A stretch of DNA of 64,000 nucleotides from Methanoregula sp. SKADARSKE-2 (GCA_030919125.1 CP121470.1:1532391-1596390); one strand, 5' to 3'. Shown: positions 18,787-32,419, numbered from the stretch's first letter. Made by a program: numbers and translations. The notes: generated from the sequence alone by a model not told the origin.

Positions 18787-19437
18787 GTGCATATTCCCGA
18801 CGCATTTATCCCGATATGGCAGGGCGCGATCTACTGGCTCCTCGCCCTTGTCTTTGTGGCGCTTGCCCTCCGGTGGGCCAGGAACGAGATGAACGAGGAG
18901 AAACTCCCGCTCGTGGCAGTCCTCGCAGCCGGCATCTTTGCCCTCCAGTCCTTCAACCTTCCGGTCTCGATGGGAACCAGCGGGCATCTCGTGGGCGGGG
19001 CGCTTGCCGCGATAATCCTCGGCTCTCCCTTCGCCGCGATCTTCATCCTGACCATGGTCCTCATCGTCCAGGGAGTCCTGTTTGGTGACGGCGGGATCAC
19101 GACAATGGGTGCAAATATCATCAACATGGGCGTGATCGGGGGATTTGTCGGGTTTTATTCGTTCAAGGGAATCCTGCGCATGACAAAGAGCATGCCGGTC
19201 TCTGCGTTCGTGGCCGCCTGGCTCGCGTGCCTCGTCCCGGCGCTTGCGGCGGCCTTTGAGATGTTCTTTGCCGGGACCTTCCCGCTCGTGGCAGGTCTCA
19301 TCACCATGGGAGTGTACCATGCGGTAATCGGGATCCTGGAAGGATTAGTAACGATTGCTGCGATCTACCTGATAACCAGCGTGAGGCCCGATCTCGTGGA
19401 GACCGGAGCCATAAGGGGAAAGGAGGTGGGTCCATGA
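18787..19437 (+). CDS. nikM: ECF nickel transporter S component NikM (CbiM family)
   Basis: N-terminal MHIPD metal-binding motif, GTSGHLVGG, LFGDGG; GTG start. Confidence 0.88.
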   Translation: MHIPDAFIPIWQGAIYWLLALVFVALALRWARNEMNEEKLPLVAVLAAGIFALQSFNLPVSMGTSGHLVGGALAAIILGSPFAAIFILTMVLIVQGVLFGDGGITTMGANIINMGVIGGFVGFYSFKGILRMTKSMPVSAFVAAWLACLVPALAAAFEMFFAGTFPLVAGLITMGVYHAVIGILEGLVTIAAIYLITSVRPDLVETGAIRGKEVGP

Positions 19438-19787
19438 AGATCGACAACAGGACATTCCTTGCTGCGGGGGTTATCATCGCACTCCTTATCGGGGTAATGG
19501 CGGTGTTTTTTGCCTCCGGGGATCCTGACGGACTTGAGAGCACGGCGCTTGTCGTGCAAGGAGAGAAGACGATCACGGGCGCAGCACCGGAACACGCAGA
19601 GATTCAGAAGGAGATCGTGGGGCGTTTCTCGTATTCTGCCCCGATGGCGGATTACTCGTTCAGCGAGACGATGGGGCCCCTGGAGGGGATCATTGCGATT
19701 GGTCTCGGTACGATCCTTGCGTTCCTGGCAGTTCTCGGGATCATTTATGCGATCAAAAAAGTCCGGCCTCCATTACAAAACCAATAG
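19434..19787 (+). CDS. PDGLE-domain membrane protein (NikN/NikL-like)
   Basis: ASGDPDGLE motif, two TM segments, 4-nt overlap with nikM. Confidence 0.85.
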   Translation: MKIDNRTFLAAGVIIALLIGVMAVFFASGDPDGLESTALVVQGEKTITGAAPEHAEIQKEIVGRFSYSAPMADYSFSETMGPLEGIIAIGLGTILAFLAVLGIIYAIKKVRPPLQNQ

Positions 19788-19822
19788 ACCTTTACCGTTT
19801 TTGAGCCTACGCTAAACTACTC

Positions 19823-20656
19823 ATGCACCTCATCGAGACCCGCGATCTCTGTTACGTTTATCCCGGCAAGGTAACCGCACTGGACAGGATCAATTTTATC
19901 GCCCCGAGGAAAGCCCGGATCGCGGTCATCGGATCGAACGGTGCGGGAAAGAGCACGCTTTTTAAACATTTCAACGGCATCTTCAGACCCACCTCCGGCA
20001 CGATCCTGATCCGCGGGGAGCCGATCACCAAAGCGAACAGCCGGGAGATAAGGAAGTTCTTGGGCCTCGTCTTCCAGAACCCTGACGATCAGATCTTCTC
20101 CCCCACCGTTGAACAGGATATAGCGTTCGGCCCGACCAATCTCGGGCTGGATGAAGAGACGATCCGCCACCGGGTCCACGAAGCCTTGAGCGTTGTCGGG
20201 ATCGAGCACCTCGCGCAGCGGGTCCCCCATCACCTGAGCGGGGGCGAGAAGAAGCGGGTTGCAATCGCCGGTGTGATCGCCATGGAGCCGGAGGTGCTGA
20301 TCCTCGATGAGCCGACCACCGGTCTTGACCCGAAAGGGGTTGCCGACCTCAACAGCTTCATCAACTCCCTCTCAGCGAAGTATGGCATGACCGTGGTCTT
20401 CTCCACCCATGACGTCGCGATGGTCCCTGAGGTTGCAGACTACATTTACGTGATGGATAAAGGCCGGGTCGTTGCGTGCGGGACGGCCGATGAGATCTTT
20501 GTGCAGCCGGAGATGCTCAGGTCCGTCCGGCTCGATGTGCCGGTCCTCCCCCGGCTCCTCAGGGCGCTCCGGGACAAGGGGGTGGACGTCTCGATGGCGT
20601 ACACGTACGCGGATGCGGAAGCCGCCCTCCTCCGGGCGTTTGGCAAACGATCATGA
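19823..20656 (+). CDS. cbiO: ECF transporter ATPase CbiO/NikO
   Basis: GSNGAGKST, VFQNPDDQ, LSGGEKKRVAIAG, LDEPT. Confidence 0.92.
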   Translation: MHLIETRDLCYVYPGKVTALDRINFIAPRKARIAVIGSNGAGKSTLFKHFNGIFRPTSGTILIRGEPITKANSREIRKFLGLVFQNPDDQIFSPTVEQDIAFGPTNLGLDEETIRHRVHEALSVVGIEHLAQRVPHHLSGGEKKRVAIAGVIAMEPEVLILDEPTTGLDPKGVADLNSFINSLSAKYGMTVVFSTHDVAMVPEVADYIYVMDKGRVVACGTADEIFVQPEMLRSVRLDVPVLPRLLRALRDKGVDVSMAYTYADAEAALLRAFGKRS

Positions 20657-21480
20657 TCGAGGAGCTCTTCCAGATAGAACGCGAGTCCTACCGCGACAGC
20701 GTGATCCACCGGCTCGATGCCCGGGTAAAGATCCTGATCGCGTTTGCTGCGATCATCGCGCTCGTCGCCATCCCGTACTCCCCCATGATCTACTCTGTCG
20801 GGGCCGTCTTCTTCGTATTCTTCGCGGTTCTCTGGTGCTGTACCCGGTTGTCTCCGGTGATTTATGGAAAGCGGCTCCTCGCCATCGTCCCTCTCTGGGG
20901 CATCATCATCTTCTTCCAGATCTTTTTGAAGAACCGGTACTATACGGATTATCACCTCGTGATGAGCCTGCCGCTTGGGATCTGTATCTATGCGGAATCG
21001 ATCGAATTCGCGTTCATCCTGCTTGTAAAATTTGTTGTCTGCATCTCCTTCATCATCCTGCTCTCGTCCACGACAAAGATCCACGACCTGCTCGAAGGCG
21101 CAGCGAGGCTCGGGCTCCCGGCAGAGTTTGCCCTTGCGCTCGGGATGATGATCCGGTACCTCTTCGTCTTCGCGTACATGTACCGGAAGATTACCGAGAC
21201 TCTCAGGACGAAATGTTTCGATGCCTTCGACCGCCACCTCCCGTACCGGTACCGGCTGAAGCAGCTGGGGTATCTGATCGGCACGATGTTCATCCGGTCC
21301 TATGAGCAGGGTGAGCGGGTGTACACGAGCATGCTCTGCCGGGGGTACGGCCGGGAGAGTTTCCTCTTCGTGAGGAAGAAACCCCTGCGATGGAGCGAAT
21401 GGGTCTTCCTCTCGCTGTCGTTCTGCTACATTATTCTGGTACCGGTGGTGATCGGGACGACCGGGGTACGATTGTTCTGA
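20653..21480 (+). CDS. cbiQ: ECF transporter T component CbiQ/NikQ
   Basis: HRLDARVK, RYLF, FIRSYEQGERVYTSMLCRGY. Confidence 0.92.
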   Translation: MIEELFQIERESYRDSVIHRLDARVKILIAFAAIIALVAIPYSPMIYSVGAVFFVFFAVLWCCTRLSPVIYGKRLLAIVPLWGIIIFFQIFLKNRYYTDYHLVMSLPLGICIYAESIEFAFILLVKFVVCISFIILLSSTTKIHDLLEGAARLGLPAEFALALGMMIRYLFVFAYMYRKITETLRTKCFDAFDRHLPYRYRLKQLGYLIGTMFIRSYEQGERVYTSMLCRGYGRESFLFVRKKPLRWSEWVFLSLSFCYIILVPVVIGTTGVRLF

Positions 21481-21612
21481 TCCGGAGGATTTTTTCGATT
21501 CCATTTCTGAAATCCGACGATCTAAAGTCTGAATAGAATTTCGCATACGCCTTTCGGAACAACTAAGCAAGTTTTATTTAGTTAATGCAAGTAAATTTGA
21601 TCCTATCTTATC

Positions 21613-22332
21613 ATGCATATCATGGAAGGATTTTTACCGGCAGGCTGGTGTCTCCTCTGGTGGCTCATCGCCCTGCCCTTCATTCTCATAGGTACTCTTG
21701 AACTCCGGGCAATTATACGAAAAGACCGGGAGTACCTGCCGCTCCTTGGCGTTTGCAGCGCGTTCATCTTTATTCTCTCCGCACTGAAGCTGCCATCAGT
21801 GACCGGTAGTTGCTCGCATCCGACCGGCACCGGGCTCTCCACTATGTGTTTCGGTGTCTTCATCACGTCAGTGATTGGCGGGATCGTCCTGCTCTTCCAG
21901 GCGCTCCTGCTTGCACACGGAGGACTCTCTACGCTCGGGGCCAATATGGTCTCGATGGCGATCGGCGGTCCCATCGCGGGTTACGCGATCTACCGTCTCC
22001 TGAAGAACACTACCGTGAATATTTACATCACGGTCTTTCTCGTCACGGCCGTCGCTGACCTGGTCACGTATATCATCACTTCGTTCGAGCTGGCCCTCGC
22101 TTACCCGGCCCAGACAGGTGGCGTATTTACTTCCTTTGCAACGTTCTTTGCGATATTTGCGGTTACCCAGATCCCGCTTGCGATTGTCGAAGCTTGTGTC
22201 CTCGCGCTCGTCTTCAAATATATCGTCAATATAAAGCCGGAAATTCTTGAGAAGTTAAATGTCTTCTCACACGACCAGATCGAGAAGGTCCGCATAATTG
22301 AAGAGCAGGTCACTCCTGCAGAGGGATCGTGA
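21613..22332 (+). CDS. cbiM: ECF cobalt transporter S component CbiM
   Basis: MHIMEGFLP, GSCSHPTG, LLAHGG, TQIPLAIVE. Confidence 0.93.
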   Translation: MHIMEGFLPAGWCLLWWLIALPFILIGTLELRAIIRKDREYLPLLGVCSAFIFILSALKLPSVTGSCSHPTGTGLSTMCFGVFITSVIGGIVLLFQALLLAHGGLSTLGANMVSMAIGGPIAGYAIYRLLKNTTVNIYITVFLVTAVADLVTYIITSFELALAYPAQTGGVFTSFATFFAIFAVTQIPLAIVEACVLALVFKYIVNIKPEILEKLNVFSHDQIEKVRIIEEQVTPAEGS

Positions 22333-22640
22333 TGATCCGGAGATATGCCCTTGAATTGATCACGCTCATTGCAGTTCTTGCCTTCATTGGAATTTTCCTT
22401 CTGGTCAGTTCCGGGGGTGCGCATGAATTCAGCGGTTCCGATGACATGGGATCGCAGAAGATTGCAGAATTGACCGGTGTTTCGGTGGATTCTGTCAAAC
22501 CGCTTATCCCCCAGTACATTCTCCCGAGCGGGGAGATTGAAGCCACCCTCTTCGCCCTTCAGGCAGCGTTCGGCGGTCTCGTTCTCGGCATCGTCTTTGG
22601 ATACTGGCTCGGCCAGAGAAAACCCGCACAAAATTTCTAA
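22329..22640 (+). CDS. cbiN: Cobalt transport protein CbiN
   Basis: FSGSDD, PSGEIEATLFALQAAFGG...GYWLG. Confidence 0.9.
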   Translation: MMIRRYALELITLIAVLAFIGIFLLVSSGGAHEFSGSDDMGSQKIAELTGVSVDSVKPLIPQYILPSGEIEATLFALQAAFGGLVLGIVFGYWLGQRKPAQNF

Positions 22641-22780
22641 AAAAAAGGACGTGCGCCCGCGTTTGTATCGGGGCACAAACGAATGGAGCGTTTCGCGGCT
22701 CCAGATTGCCGCTGAAACATAAAAACCGGAATTGGTTGGCGATCCGAAACATTGGAAAGACCATAACTACGGAGGAAGAA

Positions 22781-23542
22781 ATGTCAAGGATTTACGGAAT
22801 AAAACCTCGGGCAACGACCCGGAAACTCGTTGAGAAGTTTGAAGATGAAGTGATCATCCGGCTCCCCCGGGTGCTTGCGGCATTCCTTTCTTGGCGGCTT
22901 TTTCGTCCCGCTCTTTGCGTGGACGGGAGCGGTCGCTGCAATCCTTGTCGTCTGGCTGGTTGCCGGCAGGCGCGGCGTTGTCCCGGTTGAGACCCTTCTC
23001 CTGACCGGGATCGCGGTCTCGTTCTTCTGCTCGGCCATTGTCTCCTTCCTGATCTCCCGTGCAGGCCGGAACGTCCACCAGATCCTCTTCTGGCTCATGG
23101 GCGGCTTCTGGAACGCATCGCCATCCGATGCAATCCTCGCTGCCGCTCTTCTCGTACCTGCCGGCCTGCTCCTCGTCTTTATGTCCCGGGACTTAAACGC
23201 CCTCTCGCTTGGGGAGGAAACCGCTTTCCATCTCGGCATCGATGCAGCCCGGGTCCGCCAGATCGTACTCGGTGGCAGCACCCTGCTTGTTGCCGGGGCA
23301 GTCTCGATCGCGGGCTCCATCGGCTTTGTCGGTCTTGTCACTCCCCACGTTATCCGCACAGTCGCCGGCCCGGACAACTGCATCGTGATCCCCGCAAGTA
23401 TCTTTGGCGGGGGATTCTCCTTGTCCTTGTGGATACGCTCGCCCGAACGTTCTTCTCGGACCTCCCGGTCGGGATCATAACGGCGTTCATCGGTGCACCC
23501 TTCTTTGTCTGGCAGATCTACCGGAGGGAGTCAACGGCATGA
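22781..23542 (+). pseudogene. btuC: FecCD/BtuC-type ABC permease pseudogene
   Basis: IIRLPRVL followed by a deletion and frameshift; LLLTGIAV, FWLMG, LNALSLGEE.A..LG, GSIGFVGL..PH motifs; extra G near 23410 detaches ...DTLART...PVGIITAFIGAPFF. Confidence 0.85.
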
Positions 23543-24828
23543 ATTCGTCCGTCCGTATTCTCGCAGAAAAAATTCAGGCAGGTTACTCCGGCGGAGATGT
23601 TGTAAAAAATGTCAGCTGTTCGTTTACCACAGGTACCTTCACCGGGATCATCGGCCCGAACGGTTCGGGAAAGACCACGCTCCTCAAAGCGTTCAGCCGC
23701 GTGATCCCCTCAAGCGGCATTCTCGAGCTGGACAATAAGGCAGTCAGCGCTTATTCGCCGGCGGAACTTTCCGCTGCGCTTGGTTTTGTCCCGCAGGACG
23801 AAGGGCGTGCATTCCCGTACTCCGTTCTCCAGGTGATCCTGATGGCCAGGTACGCCCGGACCCGGCGGTTTGCTTCCATCGGGAGTGACGATTATGCCCG
23901 ATGTCACCGGGCGCTCACCGTGACCGGGCTCGCCCGGCTCGCCAATCGTTCGATCCTGACCCTGAGTGGGGGAGAATGGCAGAGGGTCCTCATCGCCCGG
24001 GCCCTTGCGCAGGATACCGGGGTTCTTCTCTTGGATGAGCCGACCTCGCACCTCGATCTTTCCCACCAGGTAGAGATCTTCTCGCTCCTGCGGAGCCTCG
24101 CAGCAGCCGGCTCCACCGTCATAGGGGTCTTCCACGATCTCACTATGGCCGCACTCTACTGCGACCGTCTTGTGATGATCTGTGACGGGAAGATCGTGGC
24201 AGATGGCAGACCCGAAGATGTCATGACTCCGGAAAAAATCCGGGAAGTGTACGGGACCGAGGTCGTCAGTTCGTTTCACCCTGTTACCGGCCGGATGTTC
24301 CTGTTGCCCGTTGATTCAGGATTCCCGCCCGGCATCTCAGGAGAATTGCAAAATGTCCTCGTGATCTCCGGGGGAGGATGCGGGGGCGAGCTCCTGCATT
24401 TCCTCTTCCGGAAGGGATACCGTCTCTCTGCCGGCATCCTTGCGACCACGGACTCCGATTACCTCGCAACCAAAACCCTGGGGATCCCCTGCATCGCAAT
24501 TCCCCCGTTCTCTACGATCCCGGCCCCAGCTCAGGAAAAATTCCGGAATTCTCTTGCACGGGCAGACCGGATTGTCTTCTCTGTTCACCCGGTGGGATGG
24601 GGGAACCTGCCGGTCCTTCTCGCGCTTCGCGAAGTCGATCCGGCGCGTATCATCCTTCATCTTCCGGAGGGCAGGGATTTTGCCTCCTTTGATTTTGCCC
24701 GGGGAAGTGCATTACCCGTACTTTCCGGTCTCTGTGCCGCTGGTGCCAGGTGTTCATCCGGGTTTGGGGAAATCCTTGAGTTTCTTGAAAAGACTAAGGG
24801 AAAGCCCGAATTCCGGAATGAACTATGA
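23539..24828 (+). CDS. btuD: Cobalamin/Fe-siderophore ABC ATPase (BtuD/FepC-like) with C-terminal extension
   Basis: GPNGSGKTT, LSGGEWQRVLIARALAQ, LDEPTSHLD; ATG 23539 overlaps the btuC stop. Confidence 0.82.
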   Translation: MNSSVRILAEKIQAGYSGGDVVKNVSCSFTTGTFTGIIGPNGSGKTTLLKAFSRVIPSSGILELDNKAVSAYSPAELSAALGFVPQDEGRAFPYSVLQVILMARYARTRRFASIGSDDYARCHRALTVTGLARLANRSILTLSGGEWQRVLIARALAQDTGVLLLDEPTSHLDLSHQVEIFSLLRSLAAAGSTVIGVFHDLTMAALYCDRLVMICDGKIVADGRPEDVMTPEKIREVYGTEVVSSFHPVTGRMFLLPVDSGFPPGISGELQNVLVISGGGCGGELLHFLFRKGYRLSAGILATTDSDYLATKTLGIPCIAIPPFSTIPAPAQEKFRNSLARADRIVFSVHPVGWGNLPVLLALREVDPARIILHLPEGRDFASFDFARGSALPVLSGLCAAGARCSSGFGEILEFLEKTKGKPEFRNEL

Positions 24829-25574
24829 CCTCGCGACCGTTATTCATCTCTACGTTCTGCTGCATCAATTACCCGCTCAGGAATGCCCTTGCAACCATCT
24901 CTTCCCGGACTTCGCATGTTGAAATCCTCTCGGACGGATTGCACGATCTTCTTGCAGGCTGCATCTCCTGTGAGGAATTTGCGTTTACCTACAGCGTTCA
25001 TGCACCGTGCGCAGAAGTCAACATCGCGGCAGTGATCGAACGCATGCGGAGTGCTTCGGTCTTGGAGCTTGGCGAAGTGCTTGAAGTTTCTGCCCGCATT
25101 GGTGCTGAGCATCTCGTGGTCCACCCGGGTTACTCGCCGTAAGAGCAGGTGCGGGAGAAATCGTACGCATCCCTGCTGCGCTCGCTAAACGAATTTGTCC
25201 GGCTCCAGGAAGAGTACGGGATAACAATCTGTGTAGAGAACATGGGCGGGTGGGAGTGCTGCCATTTCAGGACACCTGAATTCCTTGCCGAATTGCGTGA
25301 ACGGGATCTCGGATTTGCACTCGATGTCGGCCATGCAGTGCTCAACCGGAATCTTGACCTGTTCCTTGAAGCCGGGGGTTTCTGTCATGTCCACCTCCAC
25401 GATAACGGCGGCGAAACTGACGATCACCTTGCCTGCGGGAACGGGATTGCCAATTTCTCATCACTCATCAGCAGGATTCCGGATCAGGCAACCCTTGTCG
25501 TGGAGACAAAGGCTCTCCCTGCTGCCGACCGGAGTCTCCGGTTCCTTGCACCCCTGATTGACGGAGGTGGTTAA
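24825..25574 (+). pseudogene. AP-endonuclease-2 / sugar-phosphate isomerase TIM barrel with an in-frame nonsense codon
   Basis: VHAP, VHPG, ENM, DVGH, HLHDN..DDHL..G.G metal motifs; single TAA at 25140-25142 with the same frame continuing. Confidence 0.85.
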
Positions 25575-26611
25575 TGGATCTTCTGCCCGCCGGAAAAAAC
25601 CGTGCCATTGTCCTTGTCATCACGGCGATTGCGATTGCGTTTTGTATGCTTCCGGCAACGGCGGTGACTATAACGGACGACACCGGAAACGTCCTCTCCC
25701 TGGATCACACCCCCGTCCGCATCGTCTCGCTCTCCCCCGCCAACACCGAGATTCTTGCAGCGCTCGGACTCGCCGATCGCACTGTTGGCATTACAGATGT
25801 CTGCAATTTTCCTCCTGAGATCCGGAACAAGACTCGCATAGGGGGGTATGCATCCGTAAGTATCGAGAAGCTGGCCGCTATGCAGCCGGATCTCATCCTT
25901 GCTTCGGATCTCACCCCCGAAGGAACCGTGAGAAGACTCCGGGATCTCGGTTTTCCGGTGGTGGTCATAGCTCCGCATGGGATTGACCCCCTGATCCAGG
26001 ATATCCGCAGGGTGGGGGCATTGACCGGAGCTGAAGAGCCGACAGAAAATCTTTCCAACCGTCTTTTGGACCGGCTGGTGGATGCGTGTTCCTGTGGGTC
26101 CATAACACAAGATCCTACCGTTGCCCATGTGATCTGGCATGATCCATTGTACGTCAGCGGCAACAACACGCTCCAGGATGCTGCCATCGTACTGGGTGGC
26201 GGCAGAAACGTTTTTGCCGACCGTGACGGGTGGATCACGGCATCGCTTGAGGAGTTCCTTGCCAGGGATCCGGAGATTATCATCGTGAATGGGGGTGACG
26301 GGATGAACCGGCCGGGGAAAGATTTGATTCGTGAAACCCTGATGGAAAATCCACACTATGCCACACTTTCTGCGGTAAAAAATAATCGCGTCTTTGTTGT
26401 GGATGCCGATATCATCAGCCGTCCATCGCCGCGGATCGTGGATGCGATCGAGCAGATCGCACGATTTTTTCATCCGGAATGTTACCCGGAGGAGACCCGT
26501 CCGCCGGTTCCGGTGAGTCCTGTGGCAACCTCCCCGGGATTTGCTGCCTCCGAGGGCTGCGTCCTGGTTATCCTTCTTGTGAGCATCTCCTGCTGGCTGT
26601 GGATCACGTGA
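25574..26611 (+). CDS. btuF: Cobalamin-type ABC substrate-binding protein (BtuF-like) with C-terminal PGF-CTERM-like signal
   Basis: Signal peptide, RIVSLSPANTEIL, PDLIL, AVKNNRV, RPSPRIVDA; C-terminus SPGF plus hydrophobic helix. Confidence 0.85.
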   Translation: MDLLPAGKNRAIVLVITAIAIAFCMLPATAVTITDDTGNVLSLDHTPVRIVSLSPANTEILAALGLADRTVGITDVCNFPPEIRNKTRIGGYASVSIEKLAAMQPDLILASDLTPEGTVRRLRDLGFPVVVIAPHGIDPLIQDIRRVGALTGAEEPTENLSNRLLDRLVDACSCGSITQDPTVAHVIWHDPLYVSGNNTLQDAAIVLGGGRNVFADRDGWITASLEEFLARDPEIIIVNGGDGMNRPGKDLIRETLMENPHYATLSAVKNNRVFVVDADIISRPSPRIVDAIEQIARFFHPECYPEETRPPVPVSPVATSPGFAASEGCVLVILLVSISCWLWIT

Positions 26612-27021
26612 AAATATACCGGGGACCGGTCTCTCATTTTCCGGTAGTATTGGTTCACCTCAGGGATATCGCAATACTGACTCTCCGTTCAATCCTTTGC
26701 GGAATTACCCATACCTCTGCAAATTATTTCCCATCGCTGCCCGTAAGGAAGTTTATGGAAAGCAAATGGCGGTGAACTTCCATCATGGTTCTCTTCTGTC
26801 ATTGTACTGCATCGGGAATCCGGTCACTTTCCGTAACCTGCGATCAGTGCTTAGGTGAGCGGGCAAAAACCGGTCGGTTATCTCGTGCGTGCCCCTCCTC
26901 CGGAAGGCTCACTTTTTTTTAAAGAGCTTGCGATAAAACCGCAGGTATCACAAGGATAGCGTAAGAAACCTCAGGATCTTTCCCCAAACCTTTTTCATAT
27001 CTCCCGTCAGACGGACACCTC

Positions 27022-27330
27022 ATGGAGAACCAGTTCGGCCACGGTTTTGTAACAACTCTCATCCTCATCGCCCAGCACTTCGCGCTCCCCCCGGAGCAGG
27101 CATGGCACGGGGTCCAGGATCACGTCACGGGACTTGAACTCCCGGAAAAATACCGGGGGACCGAGATCGAGGAGATCACCACCCTGCTCCGGAAAAAAGT
27201 TATCTGGCACCAGGCAGGGACCAGGGACCGGGAAGATGCAGGCGAGGTGATCTCCACGCTCCGTCGGCTTGTGGTCGCAATCGATGCGGACCTTGGGATC
27301 AGGGACCCCCGGTTCGGCCGGTTCGGCTGA
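27022..27330 (+). CDS. Hypothetical protein
   Basis: 102-aa ORF, ATG start, host-like codon usage. Confidence 0.65.
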   Translation: MENQFGHGFVTTLILIAQHFALPPEQAWHGVQDHVTGLELPEKYRGTEIEEITTLLRKKVIWHQAGTRDREDAGEVISTLRRLVVAIDADLGIRDPRFGRFG

Positions 27331-27744
27331 TCCTCCAACGGGCCCCGTTCGTACGGGTTTATGGCTTCTGCCATCCCCCACCGGTCTTTCCGGGTGGTTT
27401 TTCTGCCTCTCTGCTCTGGGGGGAAGCCTCTGTCTCTGAGTGGGTCGCCTCCTTGTGCCATCCCGTCCATGGGGGCGTTTGGCGCAGGCGATCCTTTCGT
27501 AAAACGGCACTATCACTAACGGGTGAGCGCTTTCCGTGGCATGAGGAAGCCCCGGAATCGTCAGAGAAAATGATCTCTTAAACGCACTGGTCCTTGTAAA
27601 TCCTGCCGGGCCGGGAAAGATCTCCCGGGTCGTACGTCCGGGAAAAGCGGGTGACTTTTCAAAAACAAAAAGCATTATAAAAATTTCTCAATGTCCCCGA
27701 CCGCAACCGTTTATACCAAATCCGACCTATAATTATTGTGATAA

Positions 27745-32419
<4,675 letters not shown>

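Follow-up and report, generated by a model that had tools for sequence, protein, structure and literature searches.

Genes at the locus

The window analysed here is the whole stretch of 64,000 nucleotides from Methanoregula sp. SKADARSKE-2 (GCA_030919125.1, CP121470.1:1532391-1596390). It is part of a 1.95-Mb single-contig genome, and the closest relatives of its proteins carry the public name Methanoregula. The system under study is a btu operon at 22781-26611, very likely a corrinoid salvage operon, in which a gene for a TIM-barrel protein lies between those for the ATPase and the binding protein of the importer. The operon has decayed in this strain. The conserved operon of its relatives yields a credible candidate for a new family of cobamide-salvage enzymes. 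The following features were identified.

22781-22861, + strand: relic of a small gene, 27 codons of a conserved protein of ~121 amino acids (aa) that belongs to no known family (70% identity to ortholog N-termini)
22855-22862, + strand: junction of deletion 1, with one copy of CATCCGGC (alignment to relatives' contigs)
22856-23542, + strand: btuC pseudogene, stop TGA at 23540-23542 (Pfam FecCD; tblastn with a 315-aa ortholog)
23539-24828, + strand: btuD, open, 429 aa, ATP-binding cassette (ABC) ATPase at residues 1-260 plus a C-terminal domain (Pfam ABC_tran)
24825-25574, + strand: AP_endonuc_2 TIM-barrel gene of an MJ1311-like, endonuclease IV (Endo IV)-like clade, inactivated (Pfam PF01261)
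25140-25142, + strand: nonsense codon TAA in the TIM-barrel gene (TAC in relatives)
25574-26611, + strand: btuF, open, 345 aa, with an N-terminal signal/anchor and a PGF-CTERM tail (Pfam Peripla_BP_2, 112 bits)

The overlapping order btuC, btuD, TIM barrel and btuF, downstream of cbiMN, was described in an earlier note on this DNA and was confirmed by Pfam and NCBIfam matches and by reading of the junctions. The btuC/btuD and btuD/TIM junctions both read ATGA (23539-23542 and 24825-24828), and the TIM/btuF junction reads TAATG (25572-25576) with a 1-nt overlap. The ATG at 22781, from which the same note began the operon, is a real reading start, but it belongs to the small ~121-aa gene and is not the start of btuC. 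A scan of 19000-28000 with Rfam for riboswitches and other RNAs gave only a match of chance level (E 0.72).

Inactivating lesions

The lesions were judged against intact operons of related genomes, in which a 315-aa BtuC is preceded by the ~121-aa gene. The small gene, which starts with the ATG at 22781, runs for 27 codons and then continues in the same frame, with the join at 'IR', into btuC codon 46 (tblastn and alignment). The relatives have 686 more bases between two copies of CATCCGGC, of which the window keeps one; on the contig of one relative, X4, window positions 22700-22862 correspond to 1026-1188 and window positions 22855-22885 to 1867-1897. Deletion 1 therefore took the rest of the small gene together with btuC codons 1-45. 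Deletion 2 removed 125 bp at 22885/22886, with btuC codons 56-98, and changed the frame. What remains of the permease gene is codons 46-55 at 22856-22885, codons 99-276 at 22890-23423 and the C-terminus at 23408-23542. The last step in frame is a run of six G in the relatives that is five G at 23409-23413, so that the FecCD/BtuC pieces are spread over three frames of 22856-23542, two of which match Pfam FecCD with 149.9 and 35.8 bits. In the TIM-barrel gene, an A replaces the relatives' C at 25142 and turns Tyr106 from TAC into TAA, at a site where Methanoregula orthologs read SPYEQVR. The stop precedes seven of the nine metal-ligand residues and cuts the window's copy after the second ligand. 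Neither btuD nor btuF is interrupted, and the ATPase motifs of btuD are preserved. A broken permease and TIM barrel beside an open ATPase and binding protein had been proposed before, and this stands: the lesions are differences from intact relatives and not chance breaks in reading frames.

One TIM ortholog of the same genus (G014, L019:7001-7746) is split by a frameshift near codons 86-90, while btuC, btuD and btuF at that locus seem complete; the gene was either lost independently there or misread in a draft assembly.

The decay of the operon is real, and it is recent, as the earlier note had also held. Contigs of three related strains with ~98.5% identity (X4, X5 and X7), taken from runs of two other studies and three differently labelled organisms, show the intact state at all four lesions. 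The lesions are therefore private to the window's strain and the decay is very recent. Sequencing runs were compared as contigs and not as raw reads. Over 23539-25574, 25 substitutions shared against the three relatives were polarised with more distant orthologs; 17 are derived in the lineage of the window and two belong to the stem of the relatives, while eight more are private to X4. GC to AT changes make up 15 of the 17 derived substitutions, ten being C to T on the coding strand, and this skew points to an AT-biased, possibly strand-asymmetric mutation pressure. Conserved residues are among those hit (V100I and S281C in BtuD, L124F in the TIM protein), so that the genes still open, btuD and btuF, are drifting as well, though the excess is modest. 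The coverage by open reading frames (ORFs) is 0.79 in the genome, 0.70 in the window and 0.83 at the relatives' loci, a measure that is too blunt in GC-rich DNA. Taken alone, the decay is ordinary genome erosion. The study that contains the DNA of the window also includes an RNA run from a single-cell 'protist metagenome'; this run and the small genome would be compatible with a methanogen that lives inside an anaerobic protist.

Salvage and synthesis in the genome

The broken btuC is the only FecCD permease gene of the genome. The genome encodes neither another BtuF nor a further copy of the small gene, and it has no CbiZ orthologous to that of the operon, only a distant ORF with a CbiZ domain (79 bits). 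The region downstream of btuF (26500-27900) gave no tblastx or blastn match to the relatives' downstream regions that would indicate a cbiZ relic, and a 222-aa ORF on the minus strand downstream of btuF has no match in Pfam. For the completeness of de novo cbi/cob synthesis, the markers CbiD, CbiC, CbiG, CbiB and CobS were checked, and all are present without stops. That the operon-type cbiZ and the small gene have gone along with the permease and the TIM barrel, while the de novo genes remain, speaks for an enzyme of salvage rather than of synthesis.

Two other TIM-barrel genes are found in the genome, one Endo IV-like and 28% identical (C1:44321-44884), the other very divergent (C1:1239338-1240159). 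A ~38%-identical paralog that is unlinked to btu genes and carried by most of the sampled relatives of the order is absent.

Assignment of the operon to corrinoids

The best NCBIfam model for the btuD of the window is NF007082, a corrinoid ABC ATPase (274 bits, residues 16-348), and btuF is matched by TIGR04281 (133.8 bits) and BtuF (98.8 bits), both under the cut-off. The intact orthologs also score below the equivalog cut-offs (NF007081, 282.5 of 461 bits; NF007082, 291.7 of 537; NF002894, 112.9 of 234), though these are the best or near-best models; at the family level, the matches to FecCD, ABC_tran and Peripla_BP_2 are above threshold. The Halobacterium BtuCDF models fit the permease and the ATPase best and cover part of the ATPase extension (up to 345-349 of 402). 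Woodson et al. are said to have described the Halobacterium BtuCDF proteins as a corrinoid ABC importer in 2005, and we are not aware that a TIM-barrel gene has been reported within a haloarchaeal btu operon. In close relatives (L015, L018), a cbiZ gene (PF01955, 197-202 bits) lies directly 3' of btuF on the same strand, which ties the operon to corrinoids and not to iron chelates. Further cbiZ genes lie close to the btu operon in L090 and L092, and cbiMN lies upstream of it in the window, L015, L017 and L019. The Halobacterium-type models and the cbiZ neighbours bear out the reading as a cobamide-uptake operon, which we regard as very likely correct.

Linkage and distribution of the TIM-barrel clade

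The coupling of the TIM barrel to the importer, which had been suggested for the window, is general. In every locus of the clade that was examined, 26 of 26 (15/15, 10/10 and 1/1) from four families of the Methanomicrobiales, btuC, btuD and btuF lie within 6 kb. The linkage survives a variable gene order: in some loci btuF lies upstream, and in some BtuD has no extension. The unlinked paralogs of the order (~38% identity) have btu genes at none of four loci. Among 301 genomes of the phylum, scores at the level of the clade occur only in the order of the window, where four of six sampled families have them. Related TIM genes of a different family in the phylum are divergent to cbiZ (L077, L081; cbiZ at 141-152 bits in Pfam) or to btuFCD (L078) in three of ten loci, at distances of 140-330 bp from cbiZ or btuF-btuC-btuD; L077 and L078 are from one genome and L081 is from another genus of that family. 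With this adjacency outside the order, the link of MJ1311-like proteins to corrinoid salvage may be older than the operon of the Methanomicrobiales.

Family and metal site of the TIM barrel

Within the interrupted gene, the C-terminal piece of the TIM barrel matches PF01261 with 62.0 bits (cut-off 31.1) and the N-terminal piece with 21.6 bits; the domain is present in every homolog listed. Intact orthologs include a 253-aa protein (L021:6977-7735) and P0002, with 90% identity to the protein of the window. The closest solved structure is MJ1311 (PDB 3WQO; E 6.4e-42, 146.7 bits), with 238 of 247 profile positions aligned (5-242, on residues 19-276 of the chain), followed by Endo IV (5ZHZ, E 2.3e-15). 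Nine residues are invariant among the orthologs (H59, H100, E138, D167, H170, H190, D199, H201 and E227), and they align with the invariant CbiR residues H76, H114, E157, D181, H184, H209, D215, H216 and E246. In the alignment to 5ZHZ, the motifs VHAP, VHPG, ENMG, DxGHA, HxH, DDH and VxE are in register. In sugar isomerases of the AP endonuclease 2 superfamily, the metal site has four ligands. Nine ligands of a trinuclear site, as compared with these four, speak for phosphoester hydrolysis and against sugar isomerization, and the chemistry is very probably, judged from these residues, a metal-dependent phosphoester hydrolysis.

The earlier note had likened the protein to CbiR, the cobamide-remodelling phosphodiesterase of Akkermansia muciniphila (Mok et al. 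2020, PMC7733943). This kinship did not hold. The CbiR model NF041277 has a cut-off of 105 bits and gives 49.8 bits for the TIM barrel of the window, read through its stop, and 54.6 and 40.0 bits for intact orthologs. Sub-threshold matches to the same model occur in 11 of 14 control genomes, and Endo IV models score the TIM proteins with 35-40 bits. As a reference for CbiR, an Akkermansiaceae protein (232.5 bits, encoded beside cobU) and 73 relatives were used to build a hidden Markov model (HMM). The reciprocal comparison gave at most 9 bits for the archaeal TIM proteins with the CbiR HMM and at most 30 bits for CbiR proteins with the TIM HMM. No CbiR-like protein was present among the 131 near-full-length sequences of the 150 nearest relatives in a search of 1.84 billion cluster representatives. 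A quick maximum-likelihood tree of 105 proteins, 23 of them CbiR, set CbiR apart by a branch with 100% support and placed the btu-linked TIM barrels as a clade of their own (98%) inside the MJ1311-like group; the phylogeny thus puts them outside CbiR. The two families share 15% identity, and hhalign aligns them with a probability of 97% and with all nine ligand columns matched. Orthology to CbiR was rejected in four ways, by the model score, the reciprocal HMMs, the tree and the scores of the orthologs.

Proposed function and alternative explanations

The conserved operon has the order [121-aa protein]-btuC-btuD (with C-terminal domain)-TIM barrel-btuF, followed in close relatives by cbiZ. In the intact relatives, BtuFCD would import corrinoids and CbiZ would recycle cobinamide. 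The cytoplasmic TIM barrel is proposed to be a metal-dependent phosphoesterase with a trinuclear site of the Endo IV type that acts only on imported corrinoids. Its most likely cut would be at the phosphodiester of the nucleotide loop of cobamides and would give cobinamide-phosphate, which archaeal CobY could use directly, so that the cell could then attach a lower ligand of its own. The reaction would be that of CbiR in Akkermansia, carried out by an independently recruited clade. In the present strain, two deletions and a frameshift have destroyed the permease gene and the nonsense codon the TIM gene, and the cell would now live on cobalt uptake and de novo synthesis.

We give a probability of about 55% to the reading of the TIM barrel as a salvage-specific phosphoesterase and functional analogue of CbiR. 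That it works in corrinoid salvage at all is probable; that it cleaves the nucleotide loop specifically has a little less than an even chance. Several points weigh against the reading. The loci of the clade are kin, so that the figure of 26 of 26 overstates the number of independent observations. Two of the six sampled families of the order are without the clade, and four relatives without a btu-linked TIM barrel still have a FecCD permease, which makes the enzyme an accessory and not an obligate partner of the importer. The public annotation of the TIM proteins is sugar phosphate isomerase/epimerase. The CbiR model rates the TIM protein no higher than it rates an unlinked paralog (50.3 bits) or than Endo IV models do. 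Runs of a single sample are the only ones that show the four lesions. A site of the Endo IV type also supports monoesterase or nuclease chemistry, so that the sequence does not fix the reaction, and we infer the cobamide-processing role, its substrate and its reaction from context.

The same btu and cbiZ context would serve equally for a TIM barrel that takes another step in corrinoid salvage. It could be a phosphomonoesterase of cobamide-5'-phosphate or alpha-ribazole-phosphate, similar to CobZ or CobC, or could break down the released lower-ligand nucleotide, possibly with the nucleotide-binding-like C-terminal domain of BtuD, whose extension resembles nucleoside 2-deoxyribosyltransferase, LOG-like and TIR folds (Z 9-11). 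Endo IV-type trinuclear sites, such as that of Nfo, also remove 3'-phosphates. However, a phosphatase of loop assembly would be needed for de novo synthesis too, yet the TIM gene is lost while the de novo genes are open, and the sequence favours neither a monoester nor a diester. This explanation is rather unlikely.

It is improbable that the TIM barrel is unrelated to corrinoids and is simply carried along in the operon, for example as a paralog of the DNA-repair Endo IV or as a sugar-phosphate isomerase. Such a role would agree with the public name and with the scores of the Endo IV models; seven of ten loci of MJ1311-like genes outside the order are also without corrinoid neighbours, and MJ1311 is listed as a predicted Endo IV homolog (PMC2770678). 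Against it stand the translational coupling and a linkage that persists through rearranged gene orders in four families, as well as the independent adjacency to cbiZ or btuFCD in another family. Nine conserved ligands are not the four of the superfamily's sugar isomerases, a separate and more Endo IV-like paralog is kept at C1:44321-44884, and the TIM gene was lost along with the transporter.

An operon that is in fact intact, with lesions that arose by assembly or amplification in the source sample, is very improbable. The words that carry the lesions were all found only in runs X1-X3, which are of one sample, contain the complete stretch and are probably its source; one lesion lies in a homopolymer run, and the comparison was made on contigs. 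The X1 contig covers the whole 4 kb at a depth of 128 and without variants, and the other two runs contain all words sampled. Four independent lesions of three kinds at this depth, among them a substitution and the loss of 686 bp between 8-bp repeats, make an artefact of the sample unlikely, and the same genes carry the excess of derived GC to AT changes in the lineage.

A true but divergent member of the CbiR family, to which the common superfamily, the aligned ligand columns, the cobamide gene context and the rank of NF041277 as top NCBIfam match of one ortholog (54.6 bits) would point, can be dismissed with scores of 49.8-54.6 against 105 bits that an unlinked paralog reaches as well, sub-threshold matches in most control genomes, near-zero reciprocal HMM scores, no CbiR-like protein among the near relatives, a fully supported separating branch and 15% identity.

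Comparison with known systems

The TIM barrel shares with CbiR the AP endonuclease 2 fold, nine ligands of the Endo IV type and a gene beside cobamide genes, and the reaction proposed for it would be the same. It differs in being archaeal and confined to Methanomicrobiales in the genomes sampled, and in a gene placed between btuD and btuF, where cbiR is found beside cobU, cobS or cobT. If it processes cobamides, it would be an independent recruitment and not an ortholog of CbiR. Homologs of CbiR are listed for 275 bacterial taxa and one archaeal taxon, and one quarter of cbiR genes adjoin transporters (PMC7733943); the supplementary files of that paper contain no name beginning with Methano-.

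MJ1311 of Methanocaldococcus jannaschii (3WQO, 'uncharacterized protein') has the same fold and ligand set, and the btu-linked clade nests in its group. The paralogs within the order that are nearest to MJ1311 are not linked to btu genes, and the btu-linked clade is a lineage-specific offshoot. A literature search on MJ1311, MJ0874, or CbiR with methanogens returned no functional study. The Endonuclease IV of M. tuberculosis (Nfo, 5ZHZ) has the TIM barrel and the nine-residue trinuclear site in common with the protein; Nfo is a DNA-repair enzyme, whereas the context of the TIM barrel suggests no DNA role.

Archaeal CbiZ is predicted not to cleave complete cobamides (PMC3541065), which leaves a gap in the archaeal salvage pathway. 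CbiZ is an amidohydrolase of another fold and DUF71-B12, the subject of a hypothesis on this salvage, a PP-loop ATPase, and cobinamide-phosphate is the substrate of the archaeal CobY route (PMC3541065). The TIM barrel stands in the same pathway neighbourhood and before the same question of the complete cobamide, and would be a third, hydrolytic route through cobinamide-phosphate; if this is true, a remodelling family would close the gap that archaeal CbiZ leaves. Which B12 analogues are of use to a microbe depends on cobamide remodelling, and the known remodellers are limited to CbiZ, some CobS enzymes and CbiR. In methanogens, whose central methyltransferase needs a corrinoid, the conserved btuCD-TIM-btuF-(cbiZ) operon supplies a concrete candidate, and it offers a first clue to the function of the MJ1311 family, of which a structure has been solved. 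In the window, the broken copy amounts to a natural knock-out, in which the enzyme is gone with uptake and de novo synthesis is kept.

A wider proposal is put forward tentatively, with the odds somewhat against it. Under it, cobamide-remodelling phosphodiesterases would have evolved independently a second time, in the Methanomicrobiales, from MJ1311-like proteins of the Endo IV branch. With the gene integrated into the importer operon, cobamides from outside would be cleaved to cobinamide-phosphate as they enter and reassembled with the lower ligand of the methanogen itself; the LOG/TIR-like C-terminal domain of BtuD and the 121-aa protein would also belong to this system of import and remodelling.

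Cobalt uptake genes

Upstream of the operon, the window contains the following genes for cobalt uptake, which begin with an energy-coupling factor (ECF) module.

18787-19434, + strand: CbiM-like gene, start of the ECF module (Pfam)
19434-19784, + strand: PDGLE gene (Pfam)
19823-20656, + strand: cbiO (Pfam)
20653-21480, + strand: cbiQ (Pfam)
21613-22332, + strand: cbiM, open, 239 aa, the second CbiM of the window (Pfam CbiM, 184.7 bits)
22329-22640, + strand: cbiN, open, 103 aa (Pfam CbiN, 47.9 bits)

The cbiMN pair (21613-22640) has no Q and O genes of its own and sits after the CbiM-like/PDGLE/CbiO/CbiQ module. A second cbiMN-cbiO set is located 1.4 Mb away (G000:C1:155413-157909), with a CbiM (155413-156087) that is 85% identical. 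The abandonment of salvage with cobalt uptake retained, as stated in the earlier note, is supported as far as open frames show.

Accessory parts of the operon

The C-terminal domain of BtuD is an alpha/beta domain of ~170 aa (24319-24825, residues ~261-429), for which an AlphaFold2 model has a mean confidence (pLDDT) of 84. It has no match in the local Pfam, and an ortholog of the extension carries the precomputed label PF27219 'MJ0874'. Its best structural neighbours, at the Z values given above, also include molybdenum cofactor (MoCo) carrier folds. A look-up in the ESM Atlas gave no usable match, and Foldseek gave only weak Rossmann-like matches (TM at most 0.45). Invariant GGGxG and PxGxGN motifs recall the nucleotide-binding domains of LOG/SLOG proteins, and the modelled domain could be a regulatory module or one that binds the nucleotide loop. 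One Methanoregula relative (L021) has a BtuD without the extension.

At 26530-26611, btuF encodes SPGF followed by a hydrophobic tail. This is a PGF-CTERM sorting signal, with which BtuF would be a substrate of archaeosortase A.

The ~121-aa protein has no match in Pfam and none in Foldseek at E of 0.001 or below, with VIA Z of at most 6.5, and no fold was assigned. In corrinoid clusters of the family to which the window's organism belongs, such proteins are encoded upstream of btuC and in some cases a second time after cbiZ (L016:10167-10529, L066:2460-2822 and others). A metagenomic sister lineage has the ~121-aa gene directly after the TIM gene and, in front of the TIM gene, one for a 327-aa protein that has a P-loop-like N-terminal motif and no Pfam match.

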